Origin: Cryomorpha ignava
Lineage (GTDB): Bacteria; Bacteroidota; Bacteroidia; Flavobacteriales_D; Cryomorphaceae
Assembly (NCBI RefSeq): GCF_010686655.1
Contig: NZ_JAAGVY010000014.1
Location: 1 to 64,000 of the forward strand
Reading direction: 5' to 3'
Length of the DNA stretch: 64,000 nucleotides
Shown: positions 226 to 57,868 of the stretch, in pieces
How the letters are laid out: each line of letters starts with the position of its first letter
How positions within the stretch are numbered: position 1 is the first letter of the stretch
Notes under the pieces: model-generated
What the model was told of the DNA's origin: nothing
Database searches by the model: none
The model's input: only the letters and a program-made list of their open reading frames with translations
Made by a program: the position numbers and the translations under genes

Positions 226-256
226 CCTGAAAGGGTGACATAAATCAACGAGTAGA
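226..256. repeat. REP-like subterminal hairpin motif (cctgaaagggtgacataaatc...) flanking the IS200-like gene
   Basis: 27 of 30 nt match 57066-57095. An inverted copy lies at 931-951 on the other side of the transposase pseudogene. Confidence 0.5.
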
Positions 257-299: not shown

Positions 300-736
300 C
301 TAATCCCACAAATACCTTTCATCATACTCAACATTGTCTCTCTCTAAAATTCTCAAAAACTCTTCTTTAAACGTAACATTCAAATGATGTTCATGCTGAT
401 TTGAAATATATTCTACAACTCCAGCAACATGACTGGGGCTGACAGAAAATGCACCATATCCATCTTGCCAGAAAAAATTGTAAAACGGATCGCCTTTTTC
501 TTTTATCCATTTTGAAGAGTGAGATTTAAGCTCTTGAAGGAATTTTTCCAATGTGATTTTCTTCGATAACATACAAAGTACATGAACATGATCGAGGTGC
601 CCACCAATTTTAATGGTTGTACATCCCAGATTGTTACAGATTCCGCCCAAATAACTGTGCTAAAAATGATGTGGGTGTATTGATTTACGAGTGACTGTCC
701 CAAGGTTGTATATTTTAGATGAAATAGTAATGACAA
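300..736 (-). pseudogene. IS200/IS605-family Y1 HuH transposase (RAYT-like 'transposase IS200-like' of Bacteroidota), frameshifted
   Basis: Two overlapping minus-strand ORFs (503..736 and 300..650) together give a Y1-transposase. The N-terminal part reads ...YTHIIFSTVIW. After a frame change near 640-650 the other frame reads ...GGHLDHVHVLCM (HuH motif) and ...FWQDGYGAFSVSPSHV (catalytic-Tyr region). Neither frame alone is full length. Confidence 0.6.
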
Positions 737-930
737 TTACAATTGAATTTACAAATTATAATTAATTACCAGAATAATAATTCGATCAAAAAACAAAATT
801 CTTGTTGATGCGATAAAACATTGCACAAATTAGATGGAGAGATGCCGCCCTTTTGACGGAAAGGAATTCGTATGGACAGGGCTTTACCTGGTGGGGAATT
901 TTATCGATGGGTTGCACCCATCGCTTTTAA

Positions 931-951
931 ATATCGCCCTTTCAGGGCTTC
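931..951. repeat. Inverted copy of the REP-like hairpin motif (gaagccctgaaagggcgatat on the minus strand)
   Basis: On the minus strand it matches 57059-57079 (aaagccctgaaagggcgacat) at 19 of 21 nt. gccc-tgaaa-gggc forms a small hairpin. Confidence 0.5.
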
Positions 952-2476: not shown

Positions 2477-3190
2477 ATGAATTTTTTAAAAAGATTATTT
2501 AAAATAGGACAAGCCGAAACACATTCGGCAATAGATAAATTGGAAGATCCAATTAAACTTACAGAGCAAGGTATTCGCGATATGAAGGAAAATCTTTCTA
2601 AGAGCTTGCAGGCTTTAGCAGAAGTTAAAGCAATGGCTATTCGCGCCAGAAACGATAATGAAACTTATACTGATAATGCAACGGACTATCAGGAAAAAGC
2701 AATGCTTTTGCTTCAACGCGCTGAAAAAGGAGAGCTTGAAGGTGCAGAAGCAGATCGCCTGGCAACTGAAGCTTTGATGAAAAAAGCAGAAAACTCGAAA
2801 ATGGCAGAGACTTCACTTACTGAAAAAGATAGATTTGAAAAGTCGGTTGTGCAACTTGAAGGAAATGTAAAGACCATTAAAACCAATATTGGCAAATGGG
2901 AAGCTGAATTAAAAACGCTGAAAGCACGCGTAAAAGTGAGCAACGCAACAAAGAGTTTAAACAAGCAATTGGCTCAAATTGACTCTACCGATACGGTTTC
3001 TTTGCTTGAGCGCATGAAAGAAAAGGTAGCTCAGGAAGAAGCTTTGGCAGAATCTTACGGCGAAATTGCAAATGAAAGCAGAAGTATTGATGAAGATATC
3101 GACAAAGCGCTTGAAGGAAGCGTGGCCAGTAAAGCTCAAGATGAATTGGCAGATTTGAAAGCAAAAATGTCAAAAGGGAAGTTAAATTAG
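2477..3190 (+). CDS. PspA/IM30 (phage-shock protein A / Vipp1) family protein
   Basis: 237 aa, all alpha-helical coiled coil. The N-terminus MNFLKRLFKIGQAETHSAIDKLEDPIKLTEQGIRDMKENL is typical of PspA/IM30. Confidence 0.8.
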   Translation: MNFLKRLFKIGQAETHSAIDKLEDPIKLTEQGIRDMKENLSKSLQALAEVKAMAIRARNDNETYTDNATDYQEKAMLLLQRAEKGELEGAEADRLATEALMKKAENSKMAETSLTEKDRFEKSVVQLEGNVKTIKTNIGKWEAELKTLKARVKVSNATKSLNKQLAQIDSTDTVSLLERMKEKVAQEEALAESYGEIANESRSIDEDIDKALEGSVASKAQDELADLKAKMSKGKLN

Positions 3191-3229
3191 AATGAGCTTA
3201 GAAAAAGGTAATCTTAATTATAAAAAAGC

Positions 3230-3877
3230 ATGATAGAATTATTCCATGCTACCTTTTCGCCTGTGAATATCATTCCGGCCATTATACTCACTTTCGTGGT
3301 GTGCTATTGGTTACTGATCATTTTCGGTGCCTTGGATATTAATTCCTTTGATGTTGAGGTTGATCTTGATGCCGATATGGACATTGATGCCGATGGTGGC
3401 ACGTCAGAATTTTCGGTTTCGTGGTTAAACAACGTTTTGTCATTCTTCAATATCGACAAGATTCCATTGATGATTTTTCTGACTTTCACAGCCATTCCGC
3501 TTTGGGCAATAGCAGTAATGGTCAATCATATACTGGGTAACGAATCGTTTTTGCTATCGCTGCTTTTCCTTATTCCAGAGTTTATTCTCAGCGTTTTAAT
3601 CGCAAAGCCGTTGACCATTCCGTTTGTGAAAATATTTAGCAAACTGAATGAACCGACTGAACAAAATGCAAATTTACTTGGGAAAATGGGCAAAGTGGTT
3701 ATTAGTGCATCAGATTTGAAAATGGGACAAGCTGATGTGAATATCGATGGATCGAGCTATCGCTTGAACATCAAAACAAAAAATGGAAAAATAATGCGTG
3801 GCGAAAGTTTGCTTATCGTCAATTTCTCAGAGCTGGACAAATGCTACATAGTTGAGCCTTATGAATCAATCAATTAA
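3230..3877 (+). CDS. NfeD-like / YqiJ-family inner-membrane protein (OB-fold C-terminus)
   Basis: N-terminal TM helices, an acidic DVEVDLDADMDIDADGG stretch, more TM segments, and a C-terminal beta-rich segment (GKMGKVVISASDLKMGQADVNIDGSSYRLNIKTKNGKIMRGESLLIV). It lies immediately upstream of the flotillin gene, as in yqiJ-yqiK. Confidence 0.6.
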   Translation: MIELFHATFSPVNIIPAIILTFVVCYWLLIIFGALDINSFDVEVDLDADMDIDADGGTSEFSVSWLNNVLSFFNIDKIPLMIFLTFTAIPLWAIAVMVNHILGNESFLLSLLFLIPEFILSVLIAKPLTIPFVKIFSKLNEPTEQNANLLGKMGKVVISASDLKMGQADVNIDGSSYRLNIKTKNGKIMRGESLLIVNFSELDKCYIVEPYESIN

Positions 3878-3887
3878 AAAATAAAAA

Positions 3888-6029
3888 ATGGAAATGTTAG
3901 GTAATATCGGCTTCGGGATAGTCATCTTAGTCGTAATAGTCATCATCGGAATTATCGTGATGATTTCAAGATGGTACAAAAAAGCATCGCAAGGACAAGC
4001 GATTGTGAGAACCGGGGTGGGTGGAACAAGAGTTTCCTTCAATGGAATTTTAATCGTTCCCGTTTTGCACCGAATGGAAACAATGGATATTTCATTAAAA
4101 GCCATTCAAATCGAAAGAGCCGGTGCGGCAGGATTGGTTTGTAGAGATAACATCAGAGCCGACATCAAGGTTGCGTTCTTCATCCGTGTAAACAAAACGC
4201 TTGAAGATGTAATTCAGGTGGCGCAATCTGTAGGCTGTATTCGTTCGTCAGATCCCGCAGCACTAAACGATCTTTTTGACGCAAAATTTTCGGAAGCGCT
4301 TAAAACCATTGGTAAGAAGTTCGATTTTGTTGACTTGTACAATAAACGCGACGAATTTAGAGAAGAGATCGTCAATATTATCGGTACCGATTTGAATGGT
4401 TTCATTCTCGACGATGCCGCGATTGACTATTTGGAACAAACGCCGCTTTCGCAAATGGATGAAAGTAATATTCTCGACGCGGAAGGTATCAAGAAGATTA
4501 TCAGCATTACGTCGCGAGAGAAAATTCAGTCGAACCAAATTGAGAGAGACAGACAAAAAACAATTAGAAAGCAAGATGTTGAAGCGCAAGAAGCCATTCT
4601 GGAGCTCGACAAACAACTTGCAGAGAAGGAAGAAAAGCAAAAACGGGAAATTGCGAATATAAAATCGCGCGAAGAAGCCGAGATTGCTAAAGTACAGCAA
4701 GAAGAGACTCTGAAATCGGAAAGATCGCGCATTATAACCGAAGAAGAAATTCAAATTTCGGAACAGAATAAAGAGCGTGAAATAATTGTAGCATCAAAGA
4801 ATAAAGAAAGAACTTCCGCTGTTGAAACAGAGAGAATTGAGAAGGACAGATTGCTGGAAGTTACCGAGAGAGAGCGTATTGTAACGCTGGCGCAGATTGC
4901 GAAAGAGAAAGCAATTGAAACCCAGAAGCGTGATATTCAGGAAGTCATTCGGGAGCGTGTGGCGATTGAAAAAACGGTGGTTGATGAAGAAGAAAACATC
5001 AAGGACACTCGTGCAAGAGCTCTGGCCAATCGCGAGAAATTAGTCGCTGTCACCAAAGCGGAAGAATCTGCGGAAGCGGCACTTGTAGAGAAAATTAAAG
5101 CAGCTGAAGCAGCCAACCAGGCGGCAGAATTTACGGCAAAGCAAGTCATTATTGAAGCTCAGGCCGAAGAAGAATCTTCCATAAAGCGTGCAGCAGCCAT
5201 GAAAACCATGGCCGATGCCGAAGCGGCCAGGGAAGCAGCTCACGGAATAGCCGAAGCACAAGTAATGGAAGCGAAAGCCACTGCAAGACAGAAAGAAGGA
5301 GATGCGGAAGCCGCAGTAATTGAAGCACGCGCTATGGCTGAAGCCAAAGAAATTCAAGCGAAACAACATGCACGAGCCATTTCCGATTTGGAAATAGGTA
5401 AAGCCGAAGCTGAAGTAATCGAAGCAAAAGCGGTAGCCGAACAGAAAAAAGGACTTGCAGAAGCTGTGGTGAGCAAAGAGAAGTACGATGTGGAGGCAGA
5501 AGGAATTCACAAGAAAGCCGATGCCATGAAAAAATTGGACGGCGTTGGAAAAGATCACGAAGAATTCAAGTTGCGATTGGATAAAGAGAAATCGGTTGAA
5601 TTGGCTCAAATCAGCATCCAGAAAGATATAGCAGATGCTCAGGCCGAAGTTATTTCGAATGCGTTGAAAACTGCAAAAATCGATATTGTTGGTGGTGAAG
5701 CTGTATTCTTTGATAAGATTATTAGCGCCATTTCAAATGGAAAATCGGTGGAGCGTATGATTGACAACAGCGGTACTTTGGGTCAATTGAAAACCCAATT
5801 GCTTGATGGTATCGATGGCTCTACATTGAAAGAGAAGATTGGAAGTTTGGTAGATCAGTTTGGAATTTCATCTGACGATTTGAAGAACCTTTCGGTAAGC
5901 GCATTGATTTTTAAAATGATGCAAGAGAATAGCGATGATAAGCAGCAAGGGGTTTTAAACTCGTTGCTTTCGGCGGCGAAGGCCGCGGGAATTGGTGAAA
6001 AGACGCCGCATAGTTTGGGGATTAAGTAA
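3888..6029 (+). CDS. Flotillin-family (SPFH/band-7) protein, YqiK-like, with long E/A/K-rich coiled-coil tail
   Basis: N-terminal TM segment, then an SPFH core (QAIVRTGVGGTRVSFNGILIVPVLHRMETMDISLKAIQIERAGAAGLVCRDNIRADIKVAFFIRV). This is followed by ~400 aa of EA-rich heptad repeats. Confidence 0.85.
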   Translation: MEMLGNIGFGIVILVVIVIIGIIVMISRWYKKASQGQAIVRTGVGGTRVSFNGILIVPVLHRMETMDISLKAIQIERAGAAGLVCRDNIRADIKVAFFIRVNKTLEDVIQVAQSVGCIRSSDPAALNDLFDAKFSEALKTIGKKFDFVDLYNKRDEFREEIVNIIGTDLNGFILDDAAIDYLEQTPLSQMDESNILDAEGIKKIISITSREKIQSNQIERDRQKTIRKQDVEAQEAILELDKQLAEKEEKQKREIANIKSREEAEIAKVQQEETLKSERSRIITEEEIQISEQNKEREIIVASKNKERTSAVETERIEKDRLLEVTERERIVTLAQIAKEKAIETQKRDIQEVIRERVAIEKTVVDEEENIKDTRARALANREKLVAVTKAEESAEAALVEKIKAAEAANQAAEFTAKQVIIEAQAEEESSIKRAAAMKTMADAEAAREAAHGIAEAQVMEAKATARQKEGDAEAAVIEARAMAEAKEIQAKQHARAISDLEIGKAEAEVIEAKAVAEQKKGLAEAVVSKEKYDVEAEGIHKKADAMKKLDGVGKDHEEFKLRLDKEKSVELAQISIQKDIADAQAEVISNALKTAKIDIVGGEAVFFDKIISAISNGKSVERMIDNSGTLGQLKTQLLDGIDGSTLKEKIGSLVDQFGISSDDLKNLSVSALIFKMMQENSDDKQQGVLNSLLSAAKAAGIGEKTPHSLGIK

Positions 6030-6178
6030 TGTCTGTCCAGAAAGCCCGCTATCGGCGTTGCACTTGAATTGAAAACAGTCATTGACAAATGTCAACTCCT
6101 TGCTTTTCAATTCTGCGTGCGCCTTGCTATCGAACTTTCTGACTCAGACATTTGAGTGCGTTGACATACCCAGAAATT
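6028..6178. mobile_element. MITE-like element, copy 1 (5' terminus aatgtctgtcc...; 3' end degenerate)
   Basis: About 150 bp that align with 56702-56928 over both arms. It contains the internal hairpin attgacaaatgtcaa. It starts at or overlapping the TAA stop of the flotillin gene. Confidence 0.6.
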
Positions 6179-56701: not shown

Positions 56702-56928
56702 TTAGTGTCTGTCCATAAAGTCCGCTATCTGCGTTGCACTTCATTTGCAAACAGTCTTTTCGACTCATCTCGACTCATCTCGACTCCGCTCTATGACCAC
56801 CGCTCGATAACCACCGCTCAAGGCATCGCACTGACAAATGTCAACTCCTTGATTTCTAATTCTACGTGCGCCTTTCTATCAAACATTCTGACCGAGACAC
56901 TAGAGTGTATTGACAGACACTAATTTAG
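56702..56928. mobile_element. MITE-like element, copy 2 (perfect terminal inverted repeats ttagtgtctgtc / gacagacactaa)
   Basis: A 12-bp perfect terminal inverted repeat. It aligns with 6028-6178 across both arms. It carries an extra internal block with 3 x tcgactcatc tandem units and a ttgacaaatgtcaa hairpin. Confidence 0.65.
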
Positions 56929-57003
56929 AGATTACGAAGCAATACAATATATATCGTTTGTATATATAAGTACTATTTTATATCTTCGCGAAATAAATAA
57001 TAT

Positions 57004-57141
57004 AGGGTTACCCCTTTAGATCGCGAAGCGTCTAAACCATTAATTATTAACGGAATACAAACCAAAGCCCTGAAAGGGCGACATAAATCTACGCGAGGTG
57101 CGATGAAAACTACATGTTTCGCGATCTAAGTGGGTAACCCT
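57004..57141. mobile_element. Second MITE/REP-like element: 24-bp imperfect terminal inverted repeats (agggttacccctttagatcgcgaa / ttcgcgatctaagtgggtaaccct) enclosing the IS200-end-like motif
   Basis: The terminal repeats match at 22 of 24 positions. The interior contains aaagccctgaaagggcgacataaatctacgcgag, which matches 226-256 and, inverted, 931-951. It is flanked by ataatat on both sides, which could be a target duplication. Confidence 0.6.
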
Positions 57142-57158
57142 AAAATAATATTTCATTT

Positions 57159-57386
57159 ATGGCATCGAAACAAATGGCATTCCGGTTTGACGAGGAATTA
57201 ATTAGACAAGTTAAGATCAAGGCGGAAGCAGAGCATAGAAGCTTGAACAATTATATAGAAGTATTGATGCTTAGAGATATTGGTAAGATTCCCAACGCAG
57301 AGACCAAAAAAGCAATTGACGAGGTAATGTCCGGAAAAGAACTGGAAGAGATAGATGACATTGACGAATTTATGGATTCTTTGTAA
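57159..57386 (+). CDS. dinJ: DinJ/RelB-family RHH antitoxin
   Basis: A 75-aa ribbon-helix-helix protein (AFRFDEELIRQVKIKAEAEHRSLNNYIEVLM). It lies 9 bp upstream of a YafQ-type toxin. Confidence 0.7.
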   Translation: MASKQMAFRFDEELIRQVKIKAEAEHRSLNNYIEVLMLRDIGKIPNAETKKAIDEVMSGKELEEIDDIDEFMDSL

Positions 57387-57395
57387 TGGTAGCTG

Positions 57396-57674
57396 ATGTA
57401 CAAACTTGTTATTTCAACAAAATTCAAAAAAGACCTTAAAAAGATTAAGAAAGATCCTCTTAATCACGCTTTAACGAGAGCCATTTTAAAAATCTTAAAA
57501 GAAAAAGGTGCTGTTGGCATTCCAGTGAATATGAAGCCACACCGACTGTCAGGAGGATACAAAAACAGCTGGGAATGCCATATCCGGCCAGATTTACTAA
57601 TTATTTGGTTTCAGATAGAAGACCCGCAAACTATTAAGCTCATTCGTATTGGATCACATTCGGATCTGTTTTAA
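57396..57674 (+). CDS. yafQ: YafQ-family type II toxin (RelE/ParE superfamily mRNA interferase)
   Basis: KFKKDLKKIKK...HRLSGGYKNSWECHIRPDLLIIWFQIEDPQTIKLIRIGSHSDLF. The C-terminal GSHSDLF and CHIxPD(W/L)LLI motifs are YafQ hallmarks. Confidence 0.8.
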   Translation: MYKLVISTKFKKDLKKIKKDPLNHALTRAILKILKEKGAVGIPVNMKPHRLSGGYKNSWECHIRPDLLIIWFQIEDPQTIKLIRIGSHSDLF

Positions 57675-57781: not shown

Positions 57782-57868
57782 GGTTTCGTAATTAACTTAT
57801 TCGTAATTACTTGCTTCGCTTCGTGAGCGCTACGCTAAGTTCGTAATTAACTCATTCGTAATTAACCC
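57782..57868. repeat. Cluster of 4-5 direct copies of ttcgtaattaac (one variant ttcgtaattac) in the intergenic region between yafQ and the helicase gene
   Basis: Read directly at 57785-57796, 57800-57810, 57840-57851 and 57855-57866. Confidence 0.6.

Follow-up and report, generated by a model that had tools for sequence, protein, structure and literature searches.

A degenerate copy of the Acido-Lenti-1 hairpin repeat in Cryomorpha ignava and the association of this repeat with Y1 transposase genes of subclass 1.2

Repetitive extragenic palindromic (REP) sequences and their inverted doublets, REPINs, are associated with HUH transposases of the Y1 type, namely RAYTs (tyrosine transposases associated with REPs; class 2 of Quentin et al. 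2018). In such systems, also called REPtrons, inverted hairpin repeats bracket the transposase gene, copies that lack the gene are scattered over intergenic sites, alone, in doublets or in clusters, the foot of the hairpin bears a short conserved tag (GTAG), and the repeats are lineage-specific. In TIRtrons, tyrosine transposase genes (TIRYTs, of subclass 2.1, about 238 aa long and with C-terminal helix-turn-helix domains) lie within long inverted repeats, and in some genomes these make up repeat families (Di Nocera et al. 2013, PMC3733652). In the insertion sequences (ISs) of the IS200/IS605 family and the gene-less PATEs, sub-terminal hairpins are the recognition elements, the ends are not inverted repeats, both hairpins lie on one strand, and whole ISs are multi-copy. 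Here we compare these systems with a 64,000-nucleotide stretch of Cryomorpha ignava DNA (contig NZ_JAAGVY010000014.1, positions 1 to 64,000; the window). It holds a disrupted Y1 transposase gene near its start and, 56 kb away, a palindromic unit of 138-140 bp whose interior carries a hairpin motif also present beside the Y1 gene.

A fourth described element proved to be the closest in sequence. The Rfam family RF01687, 'Acido-Lenti-1 RNA', was introduced with 89 representatives from Acidobacteria and Lentisphaerae as a probable trans-acting small RNA of unknown function that is 'sometimes near group II introns' (Weinberg et al. 2010, PMC2864571). That paper states no link to transposases, and neither IS200 nor COG1943 occurs in the first 200 of its 438 supplementary files. 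A 2026 preprint still says that 'little is known' about what Acido-Lenti-1 does, and the motif continues to be annotated as a non-coding RNA in genome papers.

The interior motif of the unit appears to be a single fossil copy of a two-hairpin repeat that is widespread and whose opposite strand is catalogued by Rfam as RF01687. A preliminary description of the window had recognised the motif as a repeat, and a real one it is, but had missed its identity with the Rfam family. In the account that we favour, this repeat is a REP-like module serviced by a Y1 enzyme, and the fossil copy sits in a separate shell that resembles a miniature inverted-repeat transposable element (MITE); we give the account as a whole a probability of about 0.6.

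Each module consists of a first hairpin (HP1) followed by a G-N-C-A-T tag, an A/T-rich linker of about 8-12 nt that ends in TAG, and a second hairpin (HP2). HP1 has a 5-bp stem and, in 257 of 282 sites, a GAA triloop; its stems are GCCCT/AGGGC, ACCCT/AGGGT, ACCCC/GGGGT, ATCCC/GGGAT, ACCAC/GTGGT and others. A GAA triloop closed as C-GAA-G or T-GAA-A is a notably stable DNA mini-hairpin, and this stability fits a DNA-level role of the module. The tag 3' of HP1 reads GACAT in 176 and GGCAT in 52 of the 282 sites, with GAAAT also found, which on the other strand corresponds to ATGYC in 5' position. A 5' GT[AG]G tetranucleotide was not found at the hairpin foot; the repeat has ATGYC/GRCAT there instead. 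HP2, present in a subset of the sites, has a stem of 6-10 bp with a GGGY...RCCC core and variable outer pairs.

The HP1 hairpin is under selection and is kept by compensatory changes. Among sites of the form N5-GAA-N5-GNCAT that have a non-canonical stem, chosen by these anchors without selecting for pairing, 52 of 186 were fully Watson-Crick paired, against about 0.1% expected. Hairpins of the HP2 type, with 6 bp or more and beginning 2-10 nt past the tag, are present at 17.5% of the sites, compared with 1.6% of random positions in the same loci (11 times). When the RF01687 covariance model was applied to 20 loci fetched by the motif, it gave 19 matches at or above the gathering score (37.5-57.7 bits), which came from Bacteroidota, Acidobacteriota, Planctomycetota and Cloacimonadota.

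Within the window, the motif CCTGAAAGGGYGACATAAATC occurs at 57069-57089 and 226-246 on the forward strand, where 0 occurrences are expected by chance. The interior string CCTGAAAGGGCGACATAAATC of the unit reappears at 226-246 with one change, and the hairpin core GCCCTGAAAGGGC lies at 57067-57079 (+) and, inverted, at 936-948 (-). The motif therefore recurs on both sides of the Y1 gene and is inverted on one of them, just as the preliminary description had it. That description had made its claim depend on the significance of the matches, which we checked against dinucleotide-preserving shuffles: two motif matches arose in 0 of 100, and chance is excluded as the source of the recurrence.

The unit copy and the two Y1-flanking copies are homologous over about 45-50 nt, as seen in an alignment with copies from Prevotella and Flavipsychrobacter. 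For the unit copy this alignment spans HP1, tag, linker and the 5' arm of HP2, and the 3' arm of HP2 is missing. RF01687 matches the unit copy at 57067-57088 (-) over model positions 24-45 of 46, with 19.6 bits and an E value of 0.048; lying below the gathering score of 37 bits, the copy does not score as a member of the family and is a relative in truncated form. The copy at 905-949 (+) gave a full-length match (positions 1-46, 36.4 bits against the gathering score of 37, E 2.7e-6). Because it falls 0.6 bit under that score, a scan of the whole window at the Rfam gathering threshold returned no match, and the family was seen only by E-value scans of two regions. By analogy with the inner HP1 of intact loci described below, a further stretch at 841-887 is probably a second HP1, an unscored reading of the sequence.

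The Y1 gene itself is a pseudogene. Its 116-aa open reading frame (ORF; 300-650, -) matches Pfam Y1_Tnp (PF01797, E 3.2e-17). The last 118 codons are intact, and the N-terminal 16 codons (LGQSLVNQYTHIIFST, up to 703) stand in another frame. Relative to 150-aa homologues about 17 codons are missing, through an internal deletion of about 50 bp that causes the frameshift, and the start codon is lost. The gene is thus disrupted, as had been noted before. Its product is 54% identical over 118 aa to the homologue in locus L068 and up to 72% identical to 150-aa homologues.

The enzyme had been called a RAYT, an assignment that does not hold. The protein carries the signature DHVH, WQ and YISNQHEHH (Y---Q--HH), and therefore falls into subclass 1.2 of Quentin et al. 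2018; by this criterion it is an IS200-like TnpAY1 enzyme and not a RAYT. The NCBIfam model REP_Tyr_transpos (NF047646, cut-off 80) gave 19.2 for the window fragment and matched one of three intact homologues, with 30.2. The IS200/IS605 model NF033573 (cut-off 55) was passed by all three intact homologues (61.4-66.8), and the window fragment reached 39.4, under the cut-off. The nearest solved structure to the homologues is IS608 TnpA (E 9e-6), and no RAYT structure, whether from E. coli or not, was among the PDB matches. The protein family comprises more than 4,800 clusters at E ≤ 1e-10. Almost all of the best 120 homologues are exactly 150 aa long, and none of these 120 is an intact C. ignava paralogue. 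Several homologues are named 'REP element-mobilizing transposase RayT' at JGI and 'IS200/IS605 family transposase' at NCBI. Many 150-aa homologues lie on contigs of only about 0.6-1.5 kb, as would be expected if repeats on either side of the gene interrupt metagenome assembly.

Quentin et al. 2018 list subclass 1.2 without REPs; their automatic REP search demanded a GT[AG]G tag, which the repeat described here does not have. In their Table 1 the gene is low-copy, with a mean of 1.7 copies per genome, and its paralogues are divergent (36% identity).

Three sets of loci connect the module with such genes. At the window start, the Y1 gene is flanked by inverted modules, the copy at 905-949 (+) standing against that at 226-246 in complement orientation. 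Among 118 genome blocks that carry the motif, 10 hold a Y1 gene of the subclass-1.2 type, each bracketed by inverted modules. For a motif-blind test, four 150-aa homologues (those of Antarcticibacterium flavum, Marivirga and a metagenome, and an Aquiflexum-type protein) were chosen by protein search alone. In 7 of 7 motif-blind loci, GCCCTgaaRGGGC lies 23-29 nt before the start codon in sense orientation and 19-20 nt after the stop codon in antisense orientation. Further out, most of these loci have HP2-type hairpins (AGGGTgnaGCCCT), near +/-62 where clearest, and outer HP1 copies near +/-90-100, a spacing from which locus L133 departs. Elsewhere in the 5-kb loci there are almost no such hairpins, except for a 1.7-kb array in A. 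flavum. RF01687 scored 26.7-36.8 bits in three of the motif-blind loci.

The inner hairpin that stands just before the start codon of intact loci is absent at the window pseudogene. Taken together with the 905-949 module, the probable HP1 at 841-887 and the weakened HP1 at 226-246, the pseudogene would make the window start a decayed REPtron-like locus. The system is decaying in C. ignava: the Y1 gene is pseudogenised, the modules on its flanks show erosion, and only half of HP2 remains in the copy at 57067-57101. Two divergent subclass-1.2 Y1 genes lie within 3 kb of each other in a Cloacimonadales genome (OY782781, L113:223-672 and 3162-3611); they are 49-53% identical to that of L068, and each has its own hairpin variants.

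The module is widely dispersed. The exact 19-mer CCTGAAAGGGYGACATAAA was found in at least 118 eight-kb genome blocks, with one genome per species, under ten phylum-level names taken from record titles: Bacteroidota, Pseudomonadota (Thiotrichales and Coxiellaceae), Acidobacteriota, Planctomycetota, Verrucomicrobiota, Cloacimonadota, Calditrichota, Omnitrophota, Neomarinimicrobiota and 'Deferribacteres'. Among the matches listed, 20 blocks come from one Thiotrichales metagenome-assembled genome (MAG) and 11 from one Cloacimonadales chromosome. Only 14 of 129 motif sites lie inside open frames of at least 150 codons, though such frames make up 78% of the bases; the other 89% lie outside. Between genes the module occurs as singles, as arrays and as inverted doublets; the Thiotrichales MAG has a true inverted doublet of the form GCCCTGAAAGGGCGACATAAA-N8-25-CGCCCTTTCAGGGC. 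In A. flavum (CP040812, L129:2953-4716), the 1.7-kb spacer beside the Y1 gene consists of about 35 HP1 and HP2 hairpins in both orientations, and the Cloacimonadales chromosome (L107) has five motif copies about 260 bp apart.

We propose that the Y1 enzyme would bind the HP1 hairpin in single-stranded DNA, by analogy with IS608 TnpA and the E. coli TnpA-REP (PMC6006769). The adjacent ATGYC would act as a guide or cleavage tag, with cutting and rejoining near it, and gene-less modules may in this way be copied or moved by the enzyme. If the enzyme does bind and cut HP1 in this manner, the module would be a REP-like DNA element and not primarily a small RNA. Accordingly worded, the 'RNA motif' RF01687 is probably a REP-like DNA repeat serviced by a Y1 enzyme. 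A more far-reaching form of the proposal is one that we favour, if only by a little: Acido-Lenti-1 would be no small RNA but the single-stranded DNA substrate of 150-aa Y1 enzymes of subclass 1.2, the two forming one pan-bacterial REPtron-like system with a near-invariant hairpin, GCCCT-GAA-AGGGC plus GACAT, under at least ten phylum-level names.

The obvious competitor is the catalogued view, in which the module is a small structured RNA, its adjacency to Y1 genes reflects regulation or co-transcription, and the unit is a leader or insulating terminator of the toxin-antitoxin operon that follows it. The motif was rated 'probably RNA' on covariation (Weinberg et al. 2010, PMC2864571), but covariation supports DNA hairpins equally. 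The unit folds strongly as RNA (z -8.4) and ends 17 nt before the antitoxin start codon, and on the minus strand HP1 with a T-rich run looks like a terminator. However, occurrence in both orientations, symmetric inverted sets around the gene of a DNA-hairpin enzyme and long tandem arrays (1.7 kb in A. flavum) are the pattern of a REP-like DNA repeat and not of a trans-acting small RNA gene, and a sigma-70-type scan, which may not fit Bacteroidota, found no promoter-like site in the region. We consider the RNA explanation unlikely.

Compared with RF01687 as described, the module shares the two-hairpin architecture and the sequence, and the 905-949 copy covers all 46 model positions. It differs in being found under ten phylum-level names as an extragenic, multi-copy repeat that brackets Y1 genes, and the unit copy is a half match only. 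With the REPtrons it has in common a Y1 HUH gene, reported as low-copy, that is bracketed by inverted hairpin repeats, gene-less intergenic copies as singles, doublets and clusters, and a short conserved tag at the hairpin foot. Unlike in REPtrons, the enzyme is of class 1 (subclass 1.2), the tag is ATGYC, the module has two hairpins, and HP1 is near-invariant across phyla. The REP/RAYT organisation claimed in the preliminary description is thus partly supported, in kind and not in membership: a hairpin repeat does lie inverted around a Y1 gene and is dispersed, extragenic and multi-copy in other genomes, whereas the enzyme class and the GTAG tag do not agree. The TIRtrons resemble the present loci in having tyrosine transposase genes within long inverted repeats, and their GGGGWSAS motif is loosely like the GGGGTGAC variants of HP1 plus tag, the inverted repeats being likened here by description and not by sequence; the enzymes differ. 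IS200/IS605 elements match in protein family and in the use of hairpins, but the flanks seen here form symmetric inverted sets, and few copies per genome and divergent paralogues are reported for the gene (Quentin et al. 2018).

Against this background, the palindromic unit has two layers. Positions 57004-57027 (AGGGTTACCCCTTTAGATCGCGAA) and their reverse complement at 57118-57141 form a 24-nt terminal inverted repeat with 2 mismatches, in agreement with the 138-bp unit and near-perfect ends reported earlier. No second copy of this terminal repeat pair was found in the 64-kb window, and two matches arose in 0 of 100 shuffles. The arms extend imperfectly to 37 nt with 81% complementarity (56998-57034 and 57111-57147). 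The whole unit forms a single long hairpin, with -27.6 kcal/mol (z -5.2) when folded as DNA and -55.8 kcal/mol when folded as RNA. When TAGGG...CCCTA (57003-57142) is taken as the extent of the unit, each end lies right beside a copy of a perfect 8-bp direct repeat, AAATAATA; the flanking 'ataatat' duplication suggested in the preliminary description is not directly adjacent on the right and gives way to this longer repeat.

Transposition by HUH/Y1 enzymes, as established for IS200/IS605, leaves neither terminal inverted repeats nor target duplications. Terminal inverted repeats with an abutting direct repeat are marks of DDE-type and not of HUH/Y1 elements, and the outer layer of the unit has both. 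In our reading, the unit therefore consists of one fossil module, either captured or inserted later, within a MITE-like shell. Like the DDE-type MITEs Nezha, ERIC, RUP and NEMIS, the unit is short (140 bp), has terminal inverted repeats of 24-32 nt with an 8-bp direct repeat next to them, can form a long hairpin and lies a short distance upstream of a gene. It differs from them in that it was found in one complete copy and with no parent IS, and in that its interior repeat comes from a different (Y1) system.

The preliminary description had taken the unit for a REPIN, and a strict REPIN, that is an inverted REP doublet mobilised whole by the Y1 enzyme, would account for a palindrome that carries a Y1-associated hairpin; true inverted module doublets do exist in the Thiotrichales MAG. 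The unit, however, has a single HP1, in a half-decayed module, and its arms are not built of two inverted REP copies. The RF01687 covariance model found no match in the arms even at E ≤ 10, the arms (TAGGGTTACCC...) share no sequence with the Y1-flanking copies and are not found next to the Y1 pseudogene, and HUH/Y1 transposition does not leave an 8-bp direct repeat at the ends. A strict REPIN is in our view very improbable. We had also considered the arms as collapsed HP2 hairpins (TAG+GGGTTACCC compared with TAG+AGGGT-gca-ACCCT), and dropped this since the covariance model gave it no statistical support.

The unit could also be an ordinary DDE-type MITE with an incidental fragment of a Y1 flank, the hairpin having no role in it, past or present. 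The terminal inverted repeats, the 8-bp direct repeat, an isolated arm found elsewhere and the truncation of the module copy all agree with this. It offers no reason for the unit to contain a repeat known from 56 kb away, and neither more copies nor a parent IS were found in the loci, viral contigs, plasmids and phages searched. As a complete explanation we hold it improbable; for the outer layer it overlaps with the MITE-like shell of our favoured account, is compatible with it and has been folded into it.

The only other occurrence of an arm that was found is a solo 28-nt TAGGGTTACCCATTTAGATCGCGAAACA in four metagenome contigs (L119-L122) that have common flanking sequence. In L119 (203-230), which comes from another organism with a higher G+C content, it is 27/28 identical to the right arm and lies between genes, on the downstream side of an 887-aa gene. 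The solo arm is preceded by GACAT-N13-ATAG, a loose echo of the tag and linker of the module.

Several observations weigh against the favoured account of a Y1-serviced module in a MITE-like shell. Regarding the shell, only one complete copy of the unit was found, with none further in the window, in 139 fetched loci, in the loci of relatives or in viral contigs, plasmids and phages, and no parent or cognate IS with its ends was found in the loci, viral contigs, plasmids and phages searched. The solo TAGGGTTACCCATTTAGATCGCGAAACA copies in L119-L122 have neither a partner arm nor a hairpin motif. Although identical 8-mers at the offset of the AAATAATA repeat occur at only 5 of 63,840 window positions, this repeat is made of A and T only and is one instance. 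No clean empty site for the unit alone was found, loci L123-L126 being without the entire surrounding segment 56610-57885. Regarding the module, the motif is not enriched in the window: the 64 kb contain 3 copies, of which two flank the pseudogene, and the count is otherwise at chance level. The orientation of the best RF01687 match relative to the gene differs between loci, and the link between enzyme and module comes from gene neighbourhood and analogy. Finally, the 19-mer is near-invariant across phyla, unlike the lineage-specific REPs, and this could reflect a constraint of a different kind, for example conservation as an RNA or as a site bound by a protein.

With respect to the open-access literature, the association of the motif with subclass 1.2 and its REP-like reinterpretation appear to be new; the motif was already known from Rfam and the protein subclass from Quentin et al. 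No paper contained the motif string in open-access full text, and the association of module and Y1 genes is undescribed there, a prior description elsewhere being possible. If the account is true, a motif that has been an orphan in Rfam since 2010 would gain a function and a partner protein, and a Y1 subclass listed as having no REP-like repeat would gain one. The near-invariance of the hairpin, to an extent not known from REP/RAYT pairs, would then imply either frequent horizontal spread or a conserved host function of enzyme and repeat. It also means that one oligonucleotide could serve many orthologues in the study of how HUH enzymes read hairpins. For annotation, RF01687 matches near 150-aa 'IS200/IS605 family transposase' genes would be better read as repeat DNA, and the module repeats may explain why many such Y1 genes lie on contigs of about 1 kb. 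The window copy is a fossil, and the interest of the 138-bp unit as such is purely local.

Table 1 Positions of the features described in the C. ignava window
Feature	Position	Strand	Basis or remarks
Y1 (HUH) transposase pseudogene, 150-aa type, TnpAY1 subclass 1.2	300..703	-	Pfam and three-frame translation
HP1 and tag downstream of Y1 pseudogene, CCTGAAAGGGTGACATAAATC	226..246	+	inverted relative to the 905-949 copy; stem weakened to 3 bp
Probable second HP1 upstream of Y1 pseudogene	841..887	+	ATGCC-GCCCT ... AGGGC, about 24 nt inserted in the loop
Near-complete module upstream of Y1 pseudogene	905..949	+	HP2 CGATGGGTTGCACCCATCG, 12-nt linker, HP1 GCCCTTTCAGGGC
Left 8-bp direct repeat AAATAATA, possible target-site duplication	56995..57002	+	read from sequence
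Palindromic unit, MITE-like form	57003..57142	.	140 bp with terminal TA/TA; imperfect terminal inverted repeats around a 76-nt interior
Left arm TAGGGTTACCCCTTTAGATCGCGAAGCGTCTA	57003..57034	+	arm of the terminal inverted repeat
Decayed two-hairpin module in unit	57064..57110	- (Rfam orientation)	RF01687 partial match and alignment
HP1 of unit module, GCCCTgaaAGGGC	57067-57079		
Tag of unit module, GACAT	57080-57084		
Linker of unit module	57085-57092		
HP2 of unit module, GCGAGGTGC	57093-57101		5' arm only
Right arm, reverse complement of left	57111..57142	-	24 nt (2 mismatches) or about 32 nt (5 mismatches)
Right 8-bp direct repeat AAATAATA	57143..57150	+	read from sequence
HicB/Arc-like antitoxin gene	57159-57386	+	start 17 nt past the unit
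YafQ/RelE toxin gene	57396-57674	+	context of the unit

The surroundings of the unit were compared with three relatives that are 83-91% identical in a 755-aa helicase; the helicase encoded in the window has 100% identity with a C. ignava protein. They keep the neighbouring genes, namely the helicase, a 72-aa ORF, a 252-aa ORF and a YknX/MacB/OEP pump, and the 1.28-kb segment 56610-57885 is missing from them, with 117 bp or other short spacers in its place. This segment contains an inverted-repeat element (56702-56923), the 138-bp unit, the HicB/YafQ pair and two direct repeats of 25 nt (57785-57809 and 57840-57864; TTCGTAATTAACTyATTCGTAATTA). As it holds two small repeat elements, a toxin-antitoxin pair and direct repeats, the region is an insertion-prone spacer. 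The unit itself probably does nothing by transposition now; any present effect would at most be one of its long hairpin on transcription into the toxin-antitoxin pair.

Another repeat family, not related to the first, is represented by a unit of about 143 bp at 6030-6172, directly after the stop codon of an ORF at 3888-6029. It recurs at 56705-56923, about 80 bp upstream of the 138-bp unit, with a 73-bp insertion that holds tandem copies of CGACTCATCT. The unit is bounded by the inverted ends GTGTCTGTCCA and TTGACAGACAC and gave no Rfam match. It is probably what the preliminary description had counted as its first non-autonomous element.

At the window start, interruption of the hairpin at 226 by an IS110-type element was considered and rejected, as Flavipsychrobacter has this weakened outer stem (AGT-CCTG...) too, with no IS present. 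An ORF that runs in from the window start (3-176, +) contains HIPMKAQVAVQRKLLILVYTLCKK; it gave no Pfam match and has no relatives in the fetched loci, and it may resemble the C-terminus of IS110-type transposases. Inside this ORF lies a terminator-like hairpin with a T-run (106-161, -), a weak SorY-like match. Lastly, direct repeats of 45-51 nt with 80-90% identity were observed at 11128-11178/13940-13990, 10820-10864/13923-13967 and 12245-12294/13264-13313, and these are probably duplicated gene ends or spacers.

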